Shown here piece by piece: positions 10,311-62,304 of a DNA stretch of 64,000 nt. Each line of letters starts with the position of its first letter. Positions within the stretch are counted from its first letter, which is position 1. The notes under the pieces are model-generated. The model made no database searches and had not been told where the DNA came from. It was given only the letters and a program-made list of their open reading frames with translations. Where the stretch lies: positions 229,772,001-229,836,000 of the forward strand of contig NC_091472.1 of NCBI RefSeq assembly GCF_036971445.1, in the 5' to 3' direction. Both the position numbers and the translations under genes were made by a program. The stretch is from Narcine bancroftii. Lineage: Eukaryota.

Positions 10311-10470
10311 TATCTTCACCCCTTTAAAGGAAGGATATGGAGGCTTTGGATAGAGGGCGGAACACGTTTATCAGTTTCTAACTTACACCACTTCATATGT
10401 GTTTTGCGTCACATAAAGTAGTGGAAGGGGTTTCAGTGTGAAAACAGGGTTTTGTATCCACAAGGTCACT

Positions 10471-10956
10471 TCCTTCACCATCCTGAAGAGAGACATTGGT
10501 GACTGCTGGACGGGGAGGACGAGACAAGGAACCTTTATTCCTTATGTCAGCTCCTTCACCATCCTGAAGAGAGACATTGGTGACTGCTGGACGGGGAGGA
10601 CGAGACAAGGAACCTTTATTCCTTATGTCAGCTCCTTCACCATCCTGAAGAGAGACATTGGTGACTGCTGGACGGGGAGGACGAGACAAGGAACCTTTAT
10701 TCCTTATGTCAGCTCCTTCACCATCCTGAAGAGAGACATTGGTGACTGCTGGACGGGGAGGACGAGACAAGGAACCTTTATTCCTTATGTCAGCTCCTTC
10801 ACCATCCTGAAGAGAGACATTGGTGACTGCTGGACGGGGAGGACGAGGCAAGGAACCTTTATTCCTTATGTCAGCTCCTTCACCATCCTGAAGAGAGACA
10901 TTGGTGACTGCTGGACGGGGAGGACGAGACAAGGAACCTTTATTCCTTATGTCAGC
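10471..10956. repeat. 81-bp minisatellite, 6 near-identical copies
   Basis: Units begin tccttcaccatcctgaagagagac... at 10471, 10552, 10633, 10714, 10795 and 10876. Confidence 0.95.
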
Positions 10957-11888
10957 TCCTTCGTCACTGCCAAAGTCAAAGCAGGCAGTTATCTCTCTCA
11001 GAACTCAGGCATGAGTGTGACCGATCCATTCAATGATGGACAATGCAGTTTCCTCATCCAGAGTTCACTTTGTGTCCTTGTAGGTACTGAGTTGACTGAT
11101 TTGGAAGAATGCTGGCCCTTCACATGTAGTGATAAATGAGAGCTCCTTTCTTGTGCAACCTCTTTCCACAGAAACAGTTTTGAAGATTGTTAGGGGCCTC
11201 TTACATGAGTGTACAGCCTTTGTCATTATGGAGGAGCCTTGGTCATTGGCAATTACATCAGGCTGTTGATTGAGAAATCTGGGACCAGACCTTAACTTTC
11301 CTGAGAGAATGTTGCACTGTTGACTGGGGTCATGTCCGCATTTTGATGCATTCACCTTAAACTCCTCTCACTGCTGAAAATTTATAAGGTAATGGGTCAT
11401 TAAAGCTGATGACCCCTCAGAAAAAGTATTTTTAGATGAAGATTTTGCTTCCACTAATAAGAGATGGAAAATTATTAAAACTTTGAATGTTTTTGAATTG
11501 GAGCAGCAAAATAACAAACTTGTTTGGTCATGTGGACTCAAGGATCAATATTCGGTGCTGCCGCAATACCTCACCAAGCTACGTTGTTCATGTATCATTA
11601 TCTTTGCCTCAACAGTAGTTACAGCTCTGTGACTTGCTAAGTTTCTTCAGCATTTTTGTGTAAATTATATTCACAGAATCTTCAGATGCACTGAGCTACT
11701 GCTGGTGTTTGGATCAGGAAATGCATGGCTCTAAGTTCAGTCTGGATCACTCATGACCTTCTCCCCATGCTGTCACCAAAGCGTCTACACCCACCCAGAG
11801 AACGAAAGGGTGTATCAGTCAAATCCGAATGCAATTGGCAGAGGGAGAAACACATATCGTAGAAGGTCAGTAAATATTCATTTATCAT

Positions 11889-49529: not shown

Positions 49530-52500
49530 TTTTTCCATAAAAATTTTCTTAACAATTTATTCAATTTTTGATAAAATTCCCCTGTTATGGGAATAGGTAT
49601 CATTTGAAATAAATATTGTAACCATGAAAATATATTCATTTTGATACAGTTTACTCTCCCTATTAGAGTTATCGGCAAGTCTGATGCCTAAATAATGTAT
49701 TGCCTGTACCTGCCATTTAAAAGGGAATTCTTTTTTACATTGTGTATAGTTTGCCGTGTTCATTAGCATCACTTCACTTTTATCAATATTAACTTTATAC
49801 CCTGAAATTGACCCATATTCTTTCAATTTGATATGTAACCTCTTTATTGATTCCTTGGGATGCGTTAAATATACTATAATGTCCTCTGCAAATAAAATGA
49901 TTTTAAATTCTTCCTCTTTAATCCTCATTCACTTTATCATTCTATCTGTTCTTATCATTTCTGCCAATGGTTCTATTGCCATGGCAAAAAGGGAAGGTGA
50001 CAGTGGGCATTCCTGTCTTGTTGACCTCCTCAATTAGAAATAATCTGAAATATAACTATCGGTTAGCATTCTTGCCTTGGGATTATTATATATGGCTTTG
50101 ATCCAATTAATAATTTTTTTCTGGTATTTTAAATTTCTGAAGTACTTTAAAGAGAAAGCTCCATGCCAGCCTATCAAAGGCCTTCTCTACACCTAGAGCT
50201 ACTGCTATTGTTGGTTCTTCATTTTCTTGTCCTTTATGTATCAGATTGATAAATTTGCATACATTATCTGCTGCCCTTCTGATTGATCTGATTTCACCAA
50301 CCACGGTAAACAATTTGCTAATCTATTTGCTAGTAATTTTGCTATTAATTTATGATCAGTATTTAATTAGGAAATTGGTCTGTATGAAGATGGTGACAAC
50401 GGGTCTTTCCCTATTTTCAGGATTGCTGTGATTATTATCATCTTATAAGATCCAGATAAATTCTGAGTTTCTTCCACTTGTTTTATTACATCTAAAAAGG
50501 GTGAAATTAATAAGTTATTACAAGTTTTGTAAAATACTGTAGGGAATCCGTCCTCACTTGGTGCTTTATTATTTGGTAGAGTCATTAATGTGTTGTATAC
50601 TTGTGTAATTGTCTGGGGATTTGCTAATTTATCTTGTTCTTCTGTATTTAACTGGGATAACTCAATATTTGTCAAAAATGTATCTATTTCCTTGTTCTTC
50701 TTTAGGACCTCTGATTGGTATCATTGTTTATAAAAACTCCTGAAATTTTCATTAATCTCTTGTGGTTTATATGAAATCGGATTATTTCCTTTCGTTGTTG
50801 CTATAATAGTTCTTGTTACTTGCTCTGTCTTCAACTGCCAAGCCAAGATTTTGAGTTTTCTCACCTAATTCAAAGCATCTTTGTTTTGTTTTCATTATGC
50901 TTTTTCCACTTGGTAAGTTTGTAACATATCCTATTTCAATTTTTCCTCCGTCAATTGTCTTTTTTCCTTTTTATCTTCTCCTTTCATTAATTCTTTCTCT
51001 AAATTTACTATATCTTTTTCTAATTGTTCTATTTCTTGGTAATGTTCTTTTGTTATTTTAGTTGTATAACTTATTATTTGCCCTCTAATAAAGGCTTTCG
51101 TTGCACCCCATAATATATCTGTTACTGAATTTGTATTCATATCAAAATCTATTTTAATTTGTTGTTTTACAAATTGCCTAAAATCTTGTCTTTTCAGCAA
51201 GATTGGATTAAATCTCCAGCTATATCCTTTATTAGGAGTATCCTCCAGAACAATTGTTAGCCGTAAGGGTGAATGATCTGATAACAATCTTGCTTTATAC
51301 AGGTACACAATCTTTTATCAGGAACCCTTGGGGGACAGTACATCTTCCGAATTTCAGATTTTTCCAGATTTCAGAACAAAAGCCAGCTGCCCCAGATTTA
51401 AGCCCACCCAAATTGGGCTGCCTTATTCATCCCCTTCCAGTCACGCTGCCGTCTCTCTCTCCTCCCCTGCCCACCCGAGTTGCACTGCCATCTCTCTCTC
51501 CCCCTTGCCCACCCAAGTCACACTGCTGTCTCTCTCTCCCACCCCACCCACCCGAGTCACGCTGTTCTCCTGTCGTCTTTCTCCCCCTTGCCCACCCGAG
51601 TCATGCTGGCGTCTCTCTCCCCCCCACCGCCAACCCACCCAAGTAGCGCTATCGTCTCTCACCCCCTGCCCACCTGAGTTGTGCTGCCGTCTCTCTCCCC
51701 CTCGCCCACCCCAGTCGCCCTGCCATCTCTCCCCCCTTACTCTTCCANNNNNNNNNNNNNNNNNNNNNNNNNNNNNNNNNNNNNNNNNNNNNNNNNNNNN
51801 NNNNNNNNNNNNNNNNNNNNNNNNNNNNNNNNNNNNNNNNNNNNNNNNNNNNNNNNNNNNNNNNNNNNNNNNNNNNNNNNNNNNNNNNNNNNNNNAAAAA
51901 ATGCTGGTTTTTGGAGCTTTCCGGATTTTAGATGTCCGGATAAAGGATTGTGTACCTGTACTCAACATCTTGGACTCTCCCTTGCATTTGGACAGAAAGT
52001 AAAAACATATCAATCCTGGAGTAAGTCTTATATCTGTTAGAATAATATAAGTAATCTCTATCTTTCAGTGTTGTTTTCTCCATTTGTCTATTATCTTCAC
52101 ATCTTGCATTGAGCTTAATGTAAATTTAGCTGTTTTTTGTATTTTTTCTGGTTTTATCTAATAACAGATCAAAGCTAAAATTAAAATCACCACCTAGTAA
52201 GATATGTCCTTGTGTATCTGCTAATTGTAAAAAAAAATTGCATAAATTCCTGATCATCCTCATTAACTGTAAATGTATTGAATAAGTTCCAGGATTCTGA
52301 GTAGATCTGGCATACTATCATAACATACCTCCCAGCCAGGTCTATAACTACTTTTTCTATTTTAATAGGCAATTTTTATTAATTAAGATAGCCAACCCCC
52401 TGGCCTTTGAGTTGTAAGATGAAACTACCACATGACCCACCCAATCTCTCTTCAATTTATGATGCTCTTCTGTTAAATGAGTTTTCTGTACAAATGCTAT

Positions 52501-54300
52501 AACTATTTTTTCCATTTTTATTGATGTCAGTAATATTTTTCTCTTGATTTGGTTATGTATTCCATTAATATTAATAGTCATAAACTTCAACATATTCATT
52601 CTGTTAGCCCGTATTTTTTACATACCACCCCCTCAGACCCTTCAACTCTCTTTCTCCCACCACATCTTGAAATTTAACATATCTTTGTATATGTGTTGAC
52701 ACAAACACTCTGAGAAAATGAAGAACCAAAAAAAGACTAAGGAACTGTAAAAAAGAAAACATAGAGAAAACCCCCCTTATTGAGTTGCCCTTGCTGACCT
52801 GCAGGACAACCATAACACCTTTAACCTTTTACAGGCTGCAGTATAAACCGCAGTTGTCATCTGATTTTGTAGCAGACCATCCCTCCCCAGCCTCAGCCCT
52901 CCCCCGGAGAATTTATAATTTTCTAAACTCTTAACCAAAGCTCTCATATAATCCAACTATTAAATCACTGGTTAACCTCCAAACCTATTTACATATATAT
53001 TGCCTTTAACTGTCTCTTAGTTCTGTCCATCACTCTCATCATTGTTAAATATTTGTCAGTTGTTCAGCGAAGACTCGAGCTTTTCTTGGGTCATCATTTT
53101 TAACACTGTTGGGTGCCGCAAGACAAAACTGTAACCTTCTCTCCATAATGTGTCTTTTATTGGGTTAAATTTCTTGTGTTTCTTTAAAAATTCTAAACTT
53201 ATTCCCATTATGTTCCAACGGACCTTTAATTTCTTTTGTTCTTCTGGCCACCAGCCCTAATATTTTTTCCTTTGTCGGATACCTTTATAATTTGACCAGG
53301 ATGGAATGTGGTCTTTACTGCACCTGCGACTTCGGTGCCAAAGCTCTGTGAGCTCTTTCAATTTCTATTTCTTCCTGGAGTTGTGGAATCCATTGTTTTA
53401 GAAATCCTTTTATGTCCTTACCTTCCACACCTTCTTTCAGGCCAACTATTTTAATATTATTATGCCTACTAAAATTTTCAAGGTTGTCAATTTTCTGGGC
53501 CAATAAATCTTGTGTCTTCGTGACCCCTTTACTCCTTGCTTCTGTTTTTTCCTTTAAGACAGTCATGTCAATTTCCACACCTTTCACTCTCTCCTCTACT
53601 TGTTCACATTGCTTTTTCATATCCCTTCTTACATTTTCCATATGTTGAATTTTAATATCTGTTTCAAGCACATATTCTCTATTAACTCTGATTTCTGACA
53701 TTGATGTTTCTGTCATCACTCTCATCTGATGGTCAAAGTATTTTATGTCTATTGTTTGGTTTTGGCTTTTACCTTTAATTTTCTTCTGTATCTTCTTTGT
53801 CACTTCCAACTCTTGATCCATATCCTCACTTGAAGTAGAATTAGTTTCCAAGGCCATTTCTCCTGCTTTGTTTGCCTTTGGGCTTACAGAAACTTGCTAC
53901 TGATGACTGTTCTCTTCAGTGGCCTGACTGGAATGTGTTCTGTGCATTGGTGATGAGTGGCATGTGCGCATTACTGTTCCACTTTCTTTTTCGGACAGCC
54001 AACACTGGAGCCCACCCCGCGACATCTTGCCCTGATGTTGCTCACCTGCCGGCTTTGCAGCTCGGGCTGCCTTACCCAGGAGATCTCCCAGTTCCGGCGT
54101 GCAGGTAAGGCCTTCTTTTTCGTCTTCTGGAGATTTCCTCAGCTCGTCTTTGCTGTTCGTTGTGACTCTTTCTTTCTTCAGAGTCATTTTCTTTCTTTTC
54201 TTTCAATGTTTATCTCCAGTTTCCTGTATTTTTTAAGTTGCAACTTTGTTTTTTTTCCCACTTTTTGAGTTATTCTCCGAAGAGGCCTGGTTTGACCTGA
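49530..54300 (-). mobile_element. Decayed L1 retaining ORF1, endonuclease and RT
   Basis: ORF1: LENFSRHNNIKIVGLKEG...IEIERAHRAL (53315-53857). EN: KFMTININGI, GRYVMI, LSDHSPL. RT: PSSYRPIS, EKAFDRLAW, LFAEDII. Confidence 0.9.
51300..51958. mobile_element. Tc1/mariner (Tigger-like) non-autonomous element inserted in the L1, with an internal degenerate C-rich tandem repeat
   Basis: TIRs CAGGTACACAATC...GATTGTGTACCTG flanked by TA on both sides. ccacccgagt-containing units at 51440-51747. Confidence 0.8.
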
Positions 54301-56744: not shown

Positions 56745-57834
56745 TAAGGTGTATTTAAGGGAGAGATTGATAGGGGTTCTGATTAGCCATTGCATCAAAG
56801 GTTATGGGGAAGAGGTGGGCAGTGGGGCTGAGTGGGAAAATGGATCAGCTCATGATTGAAAGATGGGACAGACTCGATCAACTGAATAGCCTATTTCTGC
56901 TACTATGTCTTATGGTCTTATCTGCTAAAGAGCAAAACCAGCCACAGAAATAATTAGTAACCTGGTGTTATTAACTCTACAAGGTACCTAGCAGCCAAAC
57001 AAATCCAACCCACACCAGGGTCCAGGGAGCGGGTGGCTTGTGCCGATTGAACTACTTTTAGCTGATTCTACTGTCAAGATCATGTGTTGCTCATCCCTCA
57101 TTGTCCTTCAACTCCGAATTTCCTCATTTCTTTTGGGGAGCTATGAGGAGCTATTTCCACCACAGGGTGTGGATTCCCACTAAGGGCGGCCAAGTCAAGA
57201 GGCCCGAGTGACAATAGTCAGGTGCTGTTTTTTTTTTAGCTCTATTTAGTGCTGCTAACATTTTATTCTGGACGAATTAACTTTGGTGACTTTAAATATC
57301 CCATGGCTGTGGTTGCCTTGAAGCCCATCATCAGTCCAGGGCTTAGAATGTCTTTTTCAATTACAATATCGCAATGTTTGGCCATCATGCCACATGTGAA
57401 TTGCCACACTTGGAAGAATAAGTGAATATTTTTCTTGTACTTTTAATTTGATCCACAGAACAAAAGACACAACCAAAGGATAGATCATTTACAAACTATA
57501 GAATCTCTCAGTTATAGTGAAATGTACAGTCAGAGATCTGCAGAAACCCCTCCTTCCCCCCCCCCCCACCACTCCCTTATATGAACAATGAATAACAACA
57601 GATTAACAGCTTCTTCAATTTGATCGAGGCCTTCCGTGTCCACAAAAAGCCACTCATTTTTATTCACGGTCAATGTCTTGATTCCTTCTGGATTGGATTT
57701 CTGGAACCAACACAATGAATAGAGGTGTCATTTTTATGATCATCTAAGATGAGTTTGAACTCAATATTATTGTTGTACAGAAGGATCAAGAGGCAAGTGT
57801 CTAGCCTAAAGTCCTACTTACATCTGCAAGTTCC

Positions 57835-60800
57835 TCAGCCAATTATCCTTTTGACCTGCTTTACACCTGGAAGGAGACAATATTTCTCAGTAGCCTGAGT
57901 ATATCAAAGCTTTTGCATATCTTTGCAATGCATAAATGTAACTGAGAAACAGTTTGTGCATTACACTCGACTTCAGCATCTGCCGACTATCTTCCTTAAC
58001 TCTATTTGTATAGAATTATTTTTTGTTTTATGCAGTTAGTTACATAAATAAGATAAACAATATCAAATAAATGCATTTATAAAGGGTTAATTGCTTGAAT
58101 TTCAAAGTTGGAATCAAATGATTCCTCTCAAACATTTCCTGTTCAGTAGACAATGGACTCTCTGCCCCTATTGGTCAGAGACAATGGATTAACCGGCAAG
58201 TTGTTGAGATTATTGATCAGGTTGCCATTGTTGTAAGTATGGGGTTAATGGTTATAATCTGGGAGCTGGAGTGAATGTCATCAGCTCTCTCTTTGATGCC
58301 ATGAGGCGAAGAGAAGCGTTTGACCCCTCTTGGCCTGAACTCATTAAAATTTATGAGAATGAGGGAGGATCTCATTGAAACTTTTTGAATGTTGAAAGGC
58401 ATGGACAGTGTAGATCAGTGGATCCCTACTTACCACTTTAAGTATTCCCTATGTCATAGGTGGCCTGTGATTAGTAGGGTATGTGGATGGAGAGAAAAAG
58501 TTTGAAAACCAGTTTTAATTGTACCTAATTGACTCGTTATGTGCACGGTTTCATAACTCCAAAGGAAATGGGCCAATGACCATTTTTCTCAAGCAAAATA
58601 TTTCATTAACAATTGGGTCTAGAGCAGTGGTTCTCAACCTTCCCTTTCCACCCACATACCACCTTAAGCAATCCCTTACTAATCACAGAGCACTGATGGC
58701 AGAGGGATTACTTAAAATGGAAAGAAAAAGGTTGAGAACCACTGGATTAGATGTAGGAAGGTTTCATTTCTTCCAAGATTTACACAAATCCCATCCTCAC
58801 TCACTGCATCAGATGGAGCCCAAAATCAATGCATCTTAACAAGTCCAGCTAGTACCCTTTTACTCTTACCAATAATCTCCTGATTTACACTTACGTTTGT
58901 AGGCTCCTTGACGAGGCCTTCTCTTGAAGTTTATCTGTGTTTAAAAAAATGCATGTATTTAGTGCAAAGGAGCCAATGGTTAGTGTAGCAGTTAGTGCAA
59001 TGGTATAACAGTGCCAGTGACCTGTCAAATGCGCCACTGTCTGTAAGCAGTTTGCATGTTCTCCCTGTGTCTGCTTGGGTTTCTTCCAGGTGCTTCGGTT
59101 TCCTGCCACATTCCATAGACATATGGAGGGAGTAGGTTAATTTGGTGCATTTGGGGAGCATGGGTTTGTAGGCCGGAAGGGTCCGTTGCTATGCTATATC
59201 TCTAAATTAAAATTCAATTAAATATCAAAAAAATGTCGTTCTTAGCTCTTTCTAGGAAGTGCATCCCATTACTTGGAAATCAGATATGGATTTAGGGATG
59301 GAGAGGTGGCAAGTTGAATTGTGTTCTTATATTCCACGAGAAAATAACTTTTTTTTTTAAATATGGAGCCCATATTTACAGTATGTTGGTTTGAAGGTGT
59401 GAGGGGCTCTTGAAGGCCCGTCTCGTTGGTAACCCCTTAACTCTATTATTGTCTGTATTGAGAATAAATAATTCTTTCTGGCACTCTCCTAGTTTCTTTT
59501 TCTGTTTTCTTTCTATATTAGCCTAGGGTTGATGGGTGGGAGGGATAAGAGGTGTTTTTTAAATGCATATACTACATATATAATTTTTTATATACCTTTA
59601 TTGTACATAAAATTCTTAAATATAATGTTAAAAAAGTCAATGTTCTGAAGCCCTAAATATAAAGAGGAACTGTTCTCATAAATAATAGCAAAATGAATAA
59701 AGATTAGAAATCTGTTCCATGTACATGCATCAAGGTTCAATGATTTCAATAAATGTCAGAAAAGAGATACAAAGTACATTGGGTGATTGACACATGCGAC
59801 CAATGTTTCTAATATCACTGTCAATGAACCAATCAGGTGGGTTCAGGTCAGGCTTCCGTTTGGGGTGTCAGCAGAACATGAAGTTAAAAATAGAGGAAAA
59901 TTCTGATTCAAAGCACAAAATGCCCATGGCCCTGATCTGCAGGATGGCGGACTAACCTCAATACTGTTTTCACTCGATTCCATAGATCTACTTCTGTTGT
60001 CAATCGTCCTCAAGCCCCGGCACTCCACATCAATGTCAACAATCTTGCCAGCAAAGTATTCAACACGGCTTTTGCAGAAACCTTTTGCCTGTAGAAGTGA
60101 ATTATTTATTGAAATTGCTGCATGTCGACAGTAGACTCCAAGATACCTCAATGTTACACCCTTTGCGCTGCGTTCTGCTTTATCTCAGTACACCCAAGAG
60201 CTTCAACGCTAGAGTAAAACACAGGGCTCACCGCATTCTTTTTGGAGCGGAAGCGGCATCTGGGATGATCAAACTGCAGTCGGGACTTTTTGGAGCAGAC
60301 GGTTTCTTTCACGTTGAAAGCTAAATCCACGTTGTATGAAAATTTGCCTGTGCGATAAACCTAATGAAGGGAAAGGTTGCATTATTATATACTTTTATAA
60401 CTCTAACACAGGCACAGTAAAACTTGGAGTGATGTAGATATTTACATTCAAAGGAGGCCTCGATGCCACATTCAGCATTAGTGATTGGCGCAATGCGAAT
60501 ACAGCACCAGTGACCGGGTTAGAATCTGTCGCTATCAGTCAGGAGTTTGTACGTTCTCCCCACGGTCTGCGTGGGTTTCTCTGGGTGCTCCAGTTTCCTC
60601 CCACCCTTCAAAATGTACAAGGTTGGTGGATTAATTGGTGGCCAGAATCAGCTTCCACCAAATTGTAAACAAATTAAAATGATCATATCACGTGACTTGA
60701 AGCTTTAATTTGTTAAACAGAAAATTATGCCTTTAACTGTCACGATGATAAAGTACTGGAATCTTCCACAACAGGTGAGAGGTAAACAGGATCTGAAAAT

Positions 60801-62304
60801 ATTTTGGACTGAGTCTCGTGGCATGGTTCCTTGACAACACCTTCTCCTTTTTAATGTCAATAGGACAAGGGAGATGATCATTGAGTTCAGGAGAAGGGAG
60901 AGACCACACCCCTGTCCACATTAACAAGGCTGAAATTTCTTCCAGTTCCTCAAATAAATATCTCCACTGACCTGATCTGGGAGAAACTGAAAGTACACCG
61001 ATGTCTCTACTCTCTTGGGTTGATGATAAAGTTCACCAATCCCCACCCCATCCTGCAACAACCTCTCCAGGTGCACCACTGTAAGCATGCTTGCTGGTAA
61101 GGGAGCTGCTCTGCTCAAGATCGGGAGAGCCATCACTGTTGCTCAGACCATCACACAAACTTCCCTGTTCTCCATGGACTCCATTCATATCCCTGTGGTG
61201 ATACAACCACTGGACCGTCTGTGACTGCCTGCGCTCTCCGCACTCCTACCTGCCTACTGCAGGGGGAAACCCACTGTACCTGCAGTGATGTCACCTGGGA
61301 GACTGGGTCCACCTACTCCCTGCCAATCACCGTCCTCATATAAAGGCTCACACTGGCCCTTGGGCTGGAGCAGAGCACACGGTGCCAGAAAGGATACAGA
61401 ACCTGGTGTGCAAGTTTTAAGCTAATTAAAGCCTGGTGGAGTACAGCCTTTTGTTGTTTGTGCTTGGTTGTTCGCACTGCAGTGCACCAGAATCCCCCAT
61501 TGCCTCGGAAAGCAGCCAACGTACTGAAGGATTCATTACATTTCAGACACACTCCCTTCTCCTTCTTCCCATTGGGGAGAATGTCTATATAAGTGTAAAA
61601 CCGCTCACTAATAGGTTTAAAGGCATTTCTTCCCTCCAGCCATTGGACTTCTGAATGACCCCCATAACGGTGCATCCATGCAGCCCTTGCTTGATGCTAA
61701 TTGGTCTTCCTTTTCATTGCAACCCTCTACTCTGTAAATTGTGCTCTTTACATGGCTGTATTAATGTTAGAGATAACCTATTAGTCTGCTTGCAGAAGAA
61801 CCCTTCTCATTTTACAAGGTATTTTTGTGATAAATAAACTTCTAACTTCAGAAATAAATTACATATCGAAAGGTCAGATGTTTCACATTTTAGCATCCAA
61901 TCAAAATCACTCAAACCATTTGTCATTAAATATATTAAATCTGATTAATCAATATAATACTCTGCTCATGTTGGAATGAAGCCGGCGCTATTTTTTACAC
62001 TGTTGACAGTGGAACTGTTTATAGGCGGGCAAACTTACATCTTTCATGCTTCTCCCAGCCACATTGCTGAGATTGGGAATCCGGGTGATCTTATTCAGTT
62101 TTATCAGTGATGCTCTCAGAGCAGCCTTGGGGTTTGGTGCTCCTGCAGAGAAAAGAAAGGCCTTCAGTCCTCTGCACACATGTCAGTGAGCCATCATAGA
62201 CTAAAGCTCATATTCCATGCTCCATGAGGTCTCCACTCTCCCCTGGACCTACCTGAGCAGTGGAGGACCTGCACTGCAGCGAGGGCAAGCAGGAAGAACT
62301 TCAT
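57835..62304 (-). CDS. spp2: Diverged basic SPP2-like paralogue, copy E (~162 aa, frameshifted cationic C-terminus)
   Basis: Exons: 62304-62253 MKFFLLALAAVQVLHCS; 62142-62039 GAPNPKAALRASLIKLNKITRIPNLSNVAGRSMKD; 60360-60232 VYRTGKFSYNVDLAFNVKETVCSKKSRLQFDHPRCRFRSKKNA; 60088-59957 AKGFCKSRVEYFAGKIVDIDVECRGLRTIDNRSRSMESSENSIE; 58934-58895 (40 nt) INFKRRPRQGAYK; 57866-57822 RVKQVKRIIG* (stop 57837-57835). A terminal non-coding exon starts at 57700 and its 3' end is homologous to the B-D 3'UTR. Exons 1-4 are secure; the tail model is inferred. Confidence 0.72.
58416..58744. mobile_element. hAT/Charlie-like MITE in a copy E intron
   Basis: Inverted termini CAGTGGTTCTCAACCT (58625) and AGGTTGAGAACCACTG (ending 58744). 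An outer CAGTGG at 58416 has an imperfect 8-bp TSD. Confidence 0.6.
61194..61491 (+). mobile_element. Solo LTR-like element in copy E intron 2
   Basis: Termini TGTGGTG...CACCAGA, 5-bp TSD ATCCC, internal TATAAA and ATTAAA. Confidence 0.7.

Follow-up and report, generated by a model that had tools for sequence, protein, structure and literature searches.

An ancient frameshift gives an spp2.3 gene of sharks and rays a conserved cationic tail

Here we report that a gene of the spp2.3 type in the ray Narcine bancroftii, called copy E, carries a positively charged tail instead of an acidic one, and that the same shifted tail occurs in sharks and rays alike. The gene lies in a stretch of 64,000 nucleotides (assembly GCF_036971445.1, contig NC_091472.1, positions 229,772,001 to 229,836,000), which was analysed as a whole and is referred to as the window. 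A sequence-only reading of the window had proposed that a frameshift turned the acidic repeat tail of an SPP2 protein into a cationic one, and this is borne out, including transcription in the predicted form. Regarding function, we see about even chances that the tail, through its positive charge, attaches to the polyanions present in mineralising cartilage. A role in the skeletal matrix is likelier than one in host defence, because transcripts of the catshark genes with a cationic tail are found in cartilage and almost nowhere else. The published account of the elasmobranch spp2.3 tandem cluster (Debiais-Thibaud et al. 2026, PMC13188829) describes its expression by mineralising chondrocytes and states that all duplicates accumulate SxE motifs. 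The words "frameshift", "cathelicidin" and "antimicrobial" do not occur in its main text, which does not mention the tail either, whereas its figures and alignment files may show it; in the open-access literature on SPP24 or spp2 in connection with shark, ray, cathelicidin, cationic or cartilage proteomics, no description of the tail was found.

Transcription and splicing

Copy E comprises seven exons on the minus strand of the window, all ends of which coincide with AG acceptors or GT donors. The coding part of exon 1 (62253..62304, 52 nt) encodes the signal peptide, exon 2 (62039..62142, 104 nt) the start of a cystatin-like domain, exon 3 (60232..60360, 129 nt) the region of this domain that corresponds to the Spp-24 profile, and exon 4 (59957..60088, 132 nt) the end of the domain and a Ser/Glu linker. 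Exon 5 (58895..58934), a former 45-nt repeat exon that has lost 5 nt and now measures 40 nt, contributes a basic pair, a Pro/Arg hinge and the start of the conserved core, while exon 6 (57822..57866), which descends from a 45-nt Ser/Glu repeat exon and is now translated in a shifted frame, contributes the conserved cationic core. Read in the old frame, exon 6 contains two stops; the stop codon of the shifted frame is located at 57835..57837, 13 nt ahead of the last junction. The last exon (57572..57700) is now untranslated; by eye it seems homologous, though decayed, to the last exon of an acidic copy, where that exon is still coding. The joined frame encodes an SPP2 protein of 162 amino acids, whose tail of 23 amino acids has nine Lys or Arg and no Asp or Glu residues (net charge +9). 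The positions, splice sites, tail length and stop distance given by the sequence-only reading are all correct.

Copy E agrees with the elasmobranch spp2.3 genes in family and probably in locus, in its signal peptide, in the four Cys of the cystatin-like domain and in the Ser-rich stretch after the domain, which corresponds here to the Ser/Glu linker at the end of exon 4. The Spp-24 profile PF07448 (cut-off 26) matches the stingray orthologue P0002 with 34.1 bits, and exon 3 of copy E alone reaches 19 bits. Lacking any acidic residue, the tail is free of the SxE motifs that are typical of spp2.3 tails; in this it differs from the family as described in PMC13188829, but so do two of that paper's own catshark genes, spp2.3s1 and spp2.3s2 (s1 and s2).

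Transcription was assessed in assembled contigs from three runs of a single study (X1, X2 and X3), which are presumed, and not recorded, to be RNA. The 40-nt exon is contained in a contig of X2 (375 nt, depth 6.07) and in one of X3 (273 nt, depth 3.3), both times with no other letters and no gaps, and the loose ends of these contigs around it are sequence of exons 4 and 6. In X2, exactly 85 letters (40 plus 45) separate exon 4 from the last exon, which this run covers to position 57572; exon 2 is likewise covered in X2 with no other letters, and exon 3 in X3 over 60241-60358. The junctions that link exons 4, 5 and 6 and the last exon in series are thus found in spliced contigs of two of the three runs, which bears out the predicted series 59957>58934>57866. 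X1 has no contig over the 40-nt exon and counts neither for nor against splicing; it does include unspliced contigs over exons 3 and 4 with introns (59984-61757), which indicate pre-mRNA or DNA in the run. From this we conclude that the message of copy E is spliced as predicted, at low depth, and that skipping of the 40-nt exon is ruled out as its main form; rare skipped forms are possible, since the data consist of contigs.

An assembly error behind the 5-nt shortfall can also be ruled out, because a second cationic copy in the same genome, copy G (G000:C9:229983300-229988195, plus strand), has the same layout of 40 plus 45 nt, and because 35 database proteins have the same 13-residue first tail segment. 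The sequence-only reading had named four outcomes that would have spoken against it, namely a skipped 40-nt exon, an assembly error, an untranscribed copy E and a frame not conserved in relatives, none of which came true.

A frame latent in acidic exons

The derivation of the tail was examined with a profile of 45-nt Ser/Glu repeat exons, 29 of which were collected from 211 kb of the cluster and 18 of which remained after removal of near-copies; one of these 18 is a false pick that was kept in the set. Exon 6 scores 29.8 bits against this profile in copy E and 44.5 bits in copy G, whereas shuffled sequences average -35 bits and none of 10000 reached these values. The 40-nt exons, aligned to the profile with the best 5-nt gap, gave scores that were reached by 10 (E) and 15 (G) of 5000 shuffles. 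Scores are flat across the first half of the exon as to the position of the deletion. The 5-nt shortfall in the first repeat exon thus shifts the next Ser/Glu exon into the +1 frame.

In this +1 frame, the ordinary acidic exons already resemble the cationic tail: the 18 repeat exons have a net charge of 0 to +6 there, compared to -1 to -6 in frame. Since the +1 frame of the acidic copies is rich in Lys and Arg, a single frameshift flips the tail from acidic to basic, and positive charge by itself is therefore not evidence of selection. The shifted frame of sharks spans the whole 45-nt exon and a few codons more, which by inspection correspond to the acidic last exon read in +1.

The latent frame may also be reachable by alternative splicing, as P0089, an annotated isoform of an acidic copy near G000:C9:230033000-230046000, enters the same +1 frame and has a cationic end. 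In the catshark s2-type proteins P0008, P0117, P0118 and P0119, a 15-residue unit of the shifted frame is present twice, which indicates that exon duplication continued after the frameshift in catsharks. Other routes to basic tails occur within the family, i.e. a Lys-rich in-frame tail in P0034 (skate) and an Arg-rich repeated end in P0058 (stingray).

Evolution of the cationic core

The core is present in 36 of 159 proteins (158 from databases and copy E), which comprise 21 distinct 23-residue tails, and in 19 of the 22 named shark and ray species retrieved. The sequence-only reading had proposed to check whether the 40-nt exon and the shifted frame are kept in relatives, and they are; the frameshift, which it described for copy E, is not an event of this copy but is common to sharks and rays. 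The split between sharks and rays dates to roughly 250-300 million years ago. The core was absent from the elephant shark protein P0161 and from the other 28 new representatives obtained in a search of 1.8 billion proteins, and a search with the tail only returned five shark proteins, none beyond those already collected.

Within the tails, positions 11-22 are nearly fixed and form a 12-residue core, which is preceded by a hinge (positions 6-10) that is rich in Pro and varies between tails. All 21 distinct tails have a basic residue at position 5, and a basic pair at positions 4-5 occurs in 19 of them. In the new frame, exon 6 differs between copies E and G by four silent changes and one replacement (omega 0.04, Fisher p 0.006, 10 codons, with the division by exon picked after the alignment had been inspected); the old frame gives an omega of 0.84. 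Up to the stop, 27 of 32 letters match between the two exons, beyond it 7 of 13. The cystatin domain has an omega of 0.22. Since the frameshift, the 12-residue core has stayed nearly fixed and the preceding hinge has drifted.

That this type of tail works in the relatives and copy E itself is a lowly expressed, drifting spare seems very unlikely. Copy E does have Ser at residue 43 (exon 2, confirmed by the X2 contig), where all 152 pattern-matched relatives of the spp2.2/2.3 type have Cys, its contig depth is only 3-6, the omega of exon 5 is about 2 and the skate E-type model lacks the core; but its frame is open, its splice sites are intact and its message is spliced, domain and exon-6 core are conserved relative to copy G as given above, and E-type orthologues with a full tail exist in two stingrays. 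The fifth Cys of the relatives is probably unpaired and may link chains in the other copies.

The sequence-only reading had proposed two processing signals. Its convertase-type RRPR site, defined by an Arg at both position 5 and position 8 of the tail, occurs in only 7 of the 21 distinct tails, two of which lack the following Pro, and is not conserved. The terminal Gly stands in all 10 ray tails, but in none of the 26 shark tails. Some cystatin-fold proteins of the chemerin type signal through a processed C-terminus, and the ray tail might similarly be freed as a C-terminally amidated signalling peptide. Gly at position 23 ends the tails of both ray paralogues, its codon differs silently between E and G, and chemerin is the second-best match of the predicted fold. 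However, sharks keep the core without the Gly, the stop occurs at the same place in the unused +1 frame of the acidic exons as well, and the core contains further Lys-Arg pairs as potential convertase cuts, so that we regard such a peptide as highly improbable.

Ancestry and chromosomal setting

The cluster (G000:C9:229.72-230.05 Mb) comprises eleven genes in two diverging arms, with ten related copies and spp2.1, a separate gene 35 kb from copy E, lying within 0.3 Mb. Its minus arm, to which the tandem SPP2-like genes on the minus strand of the window belong, consists of spp2.1, copy E and five further copies, of which B-D are acidic and the other two were seen to have 45-nt acidic exons; copies B-D are 11-kb duplicates that are 90-94% identical over the longest matched stretches. 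The plus arm consists of spp2.2, copy G and two acidic copies.

A tree was calculated from 80 of 127 distinct cystatin domains, with no more than two domains for each tail type in a species, in addition to named rows. Copy E falls among 70 rows of the spp2.3 type, apart from 10 spp2.2 rows (support 100). The cationic copies of rays form one group (support 95), within the tree the E type, i.e. copy E, two stingrays and one skate, is recovered with a support of 99 and a domain charge of +14 to +15, and the domains of sharks sort by lineage and not by tail type. A single clade of all cationic-tail cystatin domains was rejected by the AU test with p 3e-6 (30 rows versus 47; P0001, P0056 and P0152 were dropped as doubtful).

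The tails themselves and the gene order point to a common history. All 21 tails share the 13-residue first segment, with Tyr12 in 20 and Val15 in 19 of them. In N. bancroftii, copy E is followed by spp2.1, spp2.2 and copy G, so that two cationic genes enclose the pair; Table S14 of PMC13188829 likewise has a pair of genes between two cationic ones for catshark, Hemiscyllium, Chiloscyllium plagiosum, Stegostoma and Hypanus, and the bracketed pair of the catshark is named spp2.2 and spp2.1. If the rows of this table follow chromosome order, E would occupy the place of catshark spp2.3s1 and G that of s2; copy E is probably the fourth N. bancroftii row. The bamboo shark model P0130, which fuses spp2.1 with a cationic gene, agrees with this order. 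Several independent frameshifts are judged unlikely, as gene order and, in all but Heptranchias, tail residues are common. We infer one origin before the shark-ray split, after which the cystatin domains (exons 1-4) were homogenised within shark lineages by gene conversion. The tail of the Heptranchias protein P0033 has Ile12 and Glu15 and is nearer to the unused +1 frame of acidic exons; it may have kept the ancestral state, have been converted by an acidic exon or go back to an event of its own.

Regarding the surroundings, the spp2.3 cluster of elasmobranchs is known from a locus linked to arl4c. In this genome, a single-exon Arf-family gene, which may be ARL4C, lies 0.3 Mb past the cluster, and a structure search of this gene gave generic ARF matches only. 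What looks by eye like a decayed LINE-type element occupies about 49600-54300 of the window on the minus strand, between copies D and E, and positions 10465-10962 of the window hold an 81-bp tandem repeat of about six copies that are 98-99% identical.

Relation to cathelicidins

With a cystatin-fold prodomain, an acidic linker and a cationic C-terminal segment, copy E has the layout of a cathelicidin, and the solved fold nearest to P0002 is, by a small margin, that of cathelin: in a Foldseek search, the top match of the P0002 model was the human cathelin-like domain (E 1.6e-4), followed by chemerin. This fold match does not discriminate, because chemerin, fetuin-B and cystatins match about equally well. 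On the sequence level, the cathelicidin profile PF00666 (cut-off 21 bits) gave 17.0 bits for P0002, 13.7 for P0011, 12.9 for P0117 and 16.4 for exon 3 of copy E, and lists no value for P0030; P0002 thus remains below this cut-off (17 versus 21 bits) while it exceeds that of Spp-24 (34 versus 26). A sequence search of the PDB with 14 cationic-tail proteins returned only cystatin F (E 0.09). Cathelicidins have four exons, with the peptide on the last; copy E lies in the spp2 cluster and has seven, with the tail spread over exons 5 and 6. The catshark counterparts are, moreover, near zero in blood, spleen and barrier tissues (tables of PMC13188829). Spp24 and cathelicidin are handled as separate families of vertebrate cystatins in passages of PMC2784779, and the relevant passages of PMC6795676 name no elasmobranch cathelicidin. 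An origin from SPP2 that is independent of cathelicidins, as the sequence-only reading had suggested, is supported. The fused spp2.1 and spp2.3 model P0130 does pass the Pfam cathelicidin cut-off, with 27.9 bits over two stretches, and automatic "cathelicidin" calls in sharks may therefore be SPP2.

The same reading had suggested that copy E may be the precursor of a host-defence or other bioactive peptide, convergent on cathelicidins. The freed tail would then kill microbes and might guard avascular cartilage or, as a new role in the ray E type, act at barrier tissues. Besides the layout and the top Foldseek match, this would fit a core that is half hydrophobic with its best helical periodicity at 110 degrees, the very basic E-type domain (+14 to +15), and the fact that a weak, exon-by-exon search of this genome gave no match above the cathelicidin cut-off. 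But reading in the shifted frame already supplies the positive charge, and the hydrophobic moment stays within shuffles (p 0.07-0.09 in five of six cores, 0.34 in the sixth), which gives no indication of an amphipathic helix; in the AlphaFold model of P0002, residues 127-162 have a pLDDT below 50 and form no helix. Antimicrobial peptides usually vary fast, and the core is nearly invariant. Bactericidal activity at low salt is, moreover, common among cationic peptides and would say little by itself. Finally, the cartilage expression of the catshark genes with the same tail contradicts this reading: s1 and s2 do not exceed 3.2 TPM (transcripts per million) in spleen, blood, gill, denticles and intestine, albeit of unchallenged animals (PMC13188829). 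The cathelicidin-like layout is thus a real convergence of architecture, and the present evidence points away from defence, which we hold to be unlikely and which may stay a candidate mainly for the ray E type.

Expression and function

The proteins with a cationic core could be assigned to published catshark genes by mapping accessions to the tables of PMC13188829: P0146 (XP_038646306.1) is spp2.3s1 and P0117 (XP_038646303.1) is spp2.3s2. According to that paper, only spp2.1, spp2.L2 and the elephant shark protein have an obvious Arg-rich end, which catshark spp2.3 lacks; the gill-expressed, Arg-rich spp2.1 was considered as the cationic-tail type and rejected on the basis of this mapping. 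The tails of s1 and s2 have charges of +10 and +14 and no SxE motif, those of s3-s7 charges of -4 to -6 and six to eight SxE motifs. In the paper's tables, s1 reaches 1109, 373 and 1078 TPM and s2 2692, 877 and 2378 TPM in Meckel's cartilage, chondrocranium and vertebrae, respectively, while the 28 other samples show at most 4.2 TPM for s1 and 11.6 TPM for s2 (s1/s2: gill 0.03/1.97, denticles 0.36/0.11, spleen 0/3.2, blood 0.02/0, spiral intestine 0/0.27). Together, s1 and s2 account for 45% of the catshark spp2.3 TPM in the jaw, 43% in the skull and 42% in the vertebrae, and s2 exceeds every other spp2 in the paper's table of genes with raised expression in mineralising vertebrae of embryos, with 266 to 1205 TPM.

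The cationic core includes a match to XBBXBX, a heparin-binding-type pattern, and the Ser/Glu linker ahead of the tail is of a phosphorylatable type. We propose that a secreted cationic protein would be made together with its acidic siblings by mineralising chondrocytes, that its tail would hold it in the matrix by binding sulphated proteoglycans or the phosphorylated SxE tails of these siblings, and that the protein thus held would help to set the site of calcium phosphate formation. Clipping at the conserved basic pair, a feature compatible with proteolytic release, could be a release step that frees the cystatin domain.

Several findings weigh against this reading. Besides the after-the-fact division of the tail by exon, the whole 23-codon tail has an omega of 0.58 between E and G, which is not significant (p 0.23), and exon 5 shows 13 replacements and two silent changes. 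Among the proteins retrieved from Carcharodon and the two Mobula species, none had a cationic tail, and P0001, the E-type model of the skate, ends differently, without the core. With the AU rejection, a single origin rests on the tails and the gene order and not on the tree, and that the row order of Table S14 is chromosome order is our own inference. The catshark data stem from one shark species, from short reads over near-identical paralogues and from animals without an infection challenge, and copy E's own contigs have a depth of 3-6 and come from runs without tissue label. The E type diverged in rays on a long branch, with a domain charge of +14 to +15 compared to +2 to +10 in other cationic-tail copies, and may have changed its role; on this ray-specific branch, the cystatin domain of copy E (exons over 59957-62142) is strongly basic, with 23 Lys or Arg and 8 Asp or Glu residues, as are those of the stingray and skate orthologues.

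Alternatively, the tail might re-create the Arg-rich C-terminus of mammalian Spp24 and raise binding of growth factors of the BMP/TGF-beta group until it is clipped. In mammals, this end is clipped and raises such binding (PMC3753320); the acidic spp2.3 siblings lack such a tail and tgfb2 rises in the same catshark vertebrae (PMC13188829), and the basic residue at tail position 5 is invariant. The tail is, however, of a different ancestry from the Arg-rich tails of SPP2 in bony vertebrates and of spp2.1, as the core is found in none of the 29 new representatives, and thousands of TPM would suit a structural matrix component better than a regulator. A growth-factor switch, which overlaps with matrix binding, therefore seems rather improbable to us, if less so than defence.

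A more far-reaching version of the matrix-binding proposal, which we offer tentatively and with a similarly low expectation, is a two-part polyelectrolyte system built from one family. Phosphorylated acidic SPP2 tails and polycationic tails of the other frame, whose expression ratio is nearly the same in the three catshark cartilages (about 43:57, cationic to acidic), would co-assemble, possibly cross-linked through the spare Cys that is almost invariant in the family, into a phase that loads calcium phosphate. In this picture, the E type of rays would have branched off as a hyper-basic form, from which an amidated peptide may be released in addition.

Wider comparisons

Mammalian SPP24 (SPP2) resembles copy E in having a cystatin-like domain, a Ser-rich stretch and a basic C-terminus. 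Unlike copy E, it is a single-copy, mostly liver-made blood protein (PMC13188829), and its basic tail is of other ancestry, whereas that of copy E is the +1 frame of acidic repeat exons. A parallel in mode of origin is euAP3 of APETALA3 (PMC1513400), in which a duplicate gained a new conserved C-terminal motif from another frame; in SPP2, by comparison, the repeats affected by the shift are exon modules and the sign of the net charge is inverted, and the new-frame exons were duplicated further in catsharks.

Copy E is thus an ancient, real and expressed frameshift variant within a recently published family, whose charge reversal is unreported in the text of PMC13188829 and whose matrix function is putative. 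It is a clear case, in animals, of a conserved motif that arose anew from a latent frame, with the precursor frame still readable in sibling exons. The way in which elasmobranchs, which lack bone, mineralise their cartilage is an open question, for which spp2.3 has been named the main lineage-specific component, with all members assumed to be acidic phosphoproteins (PMC13188829). This working model is altered by the finding that, in catshark cartilage, almost half of the spp2.3 transcripts code for tails of the opposite charge.

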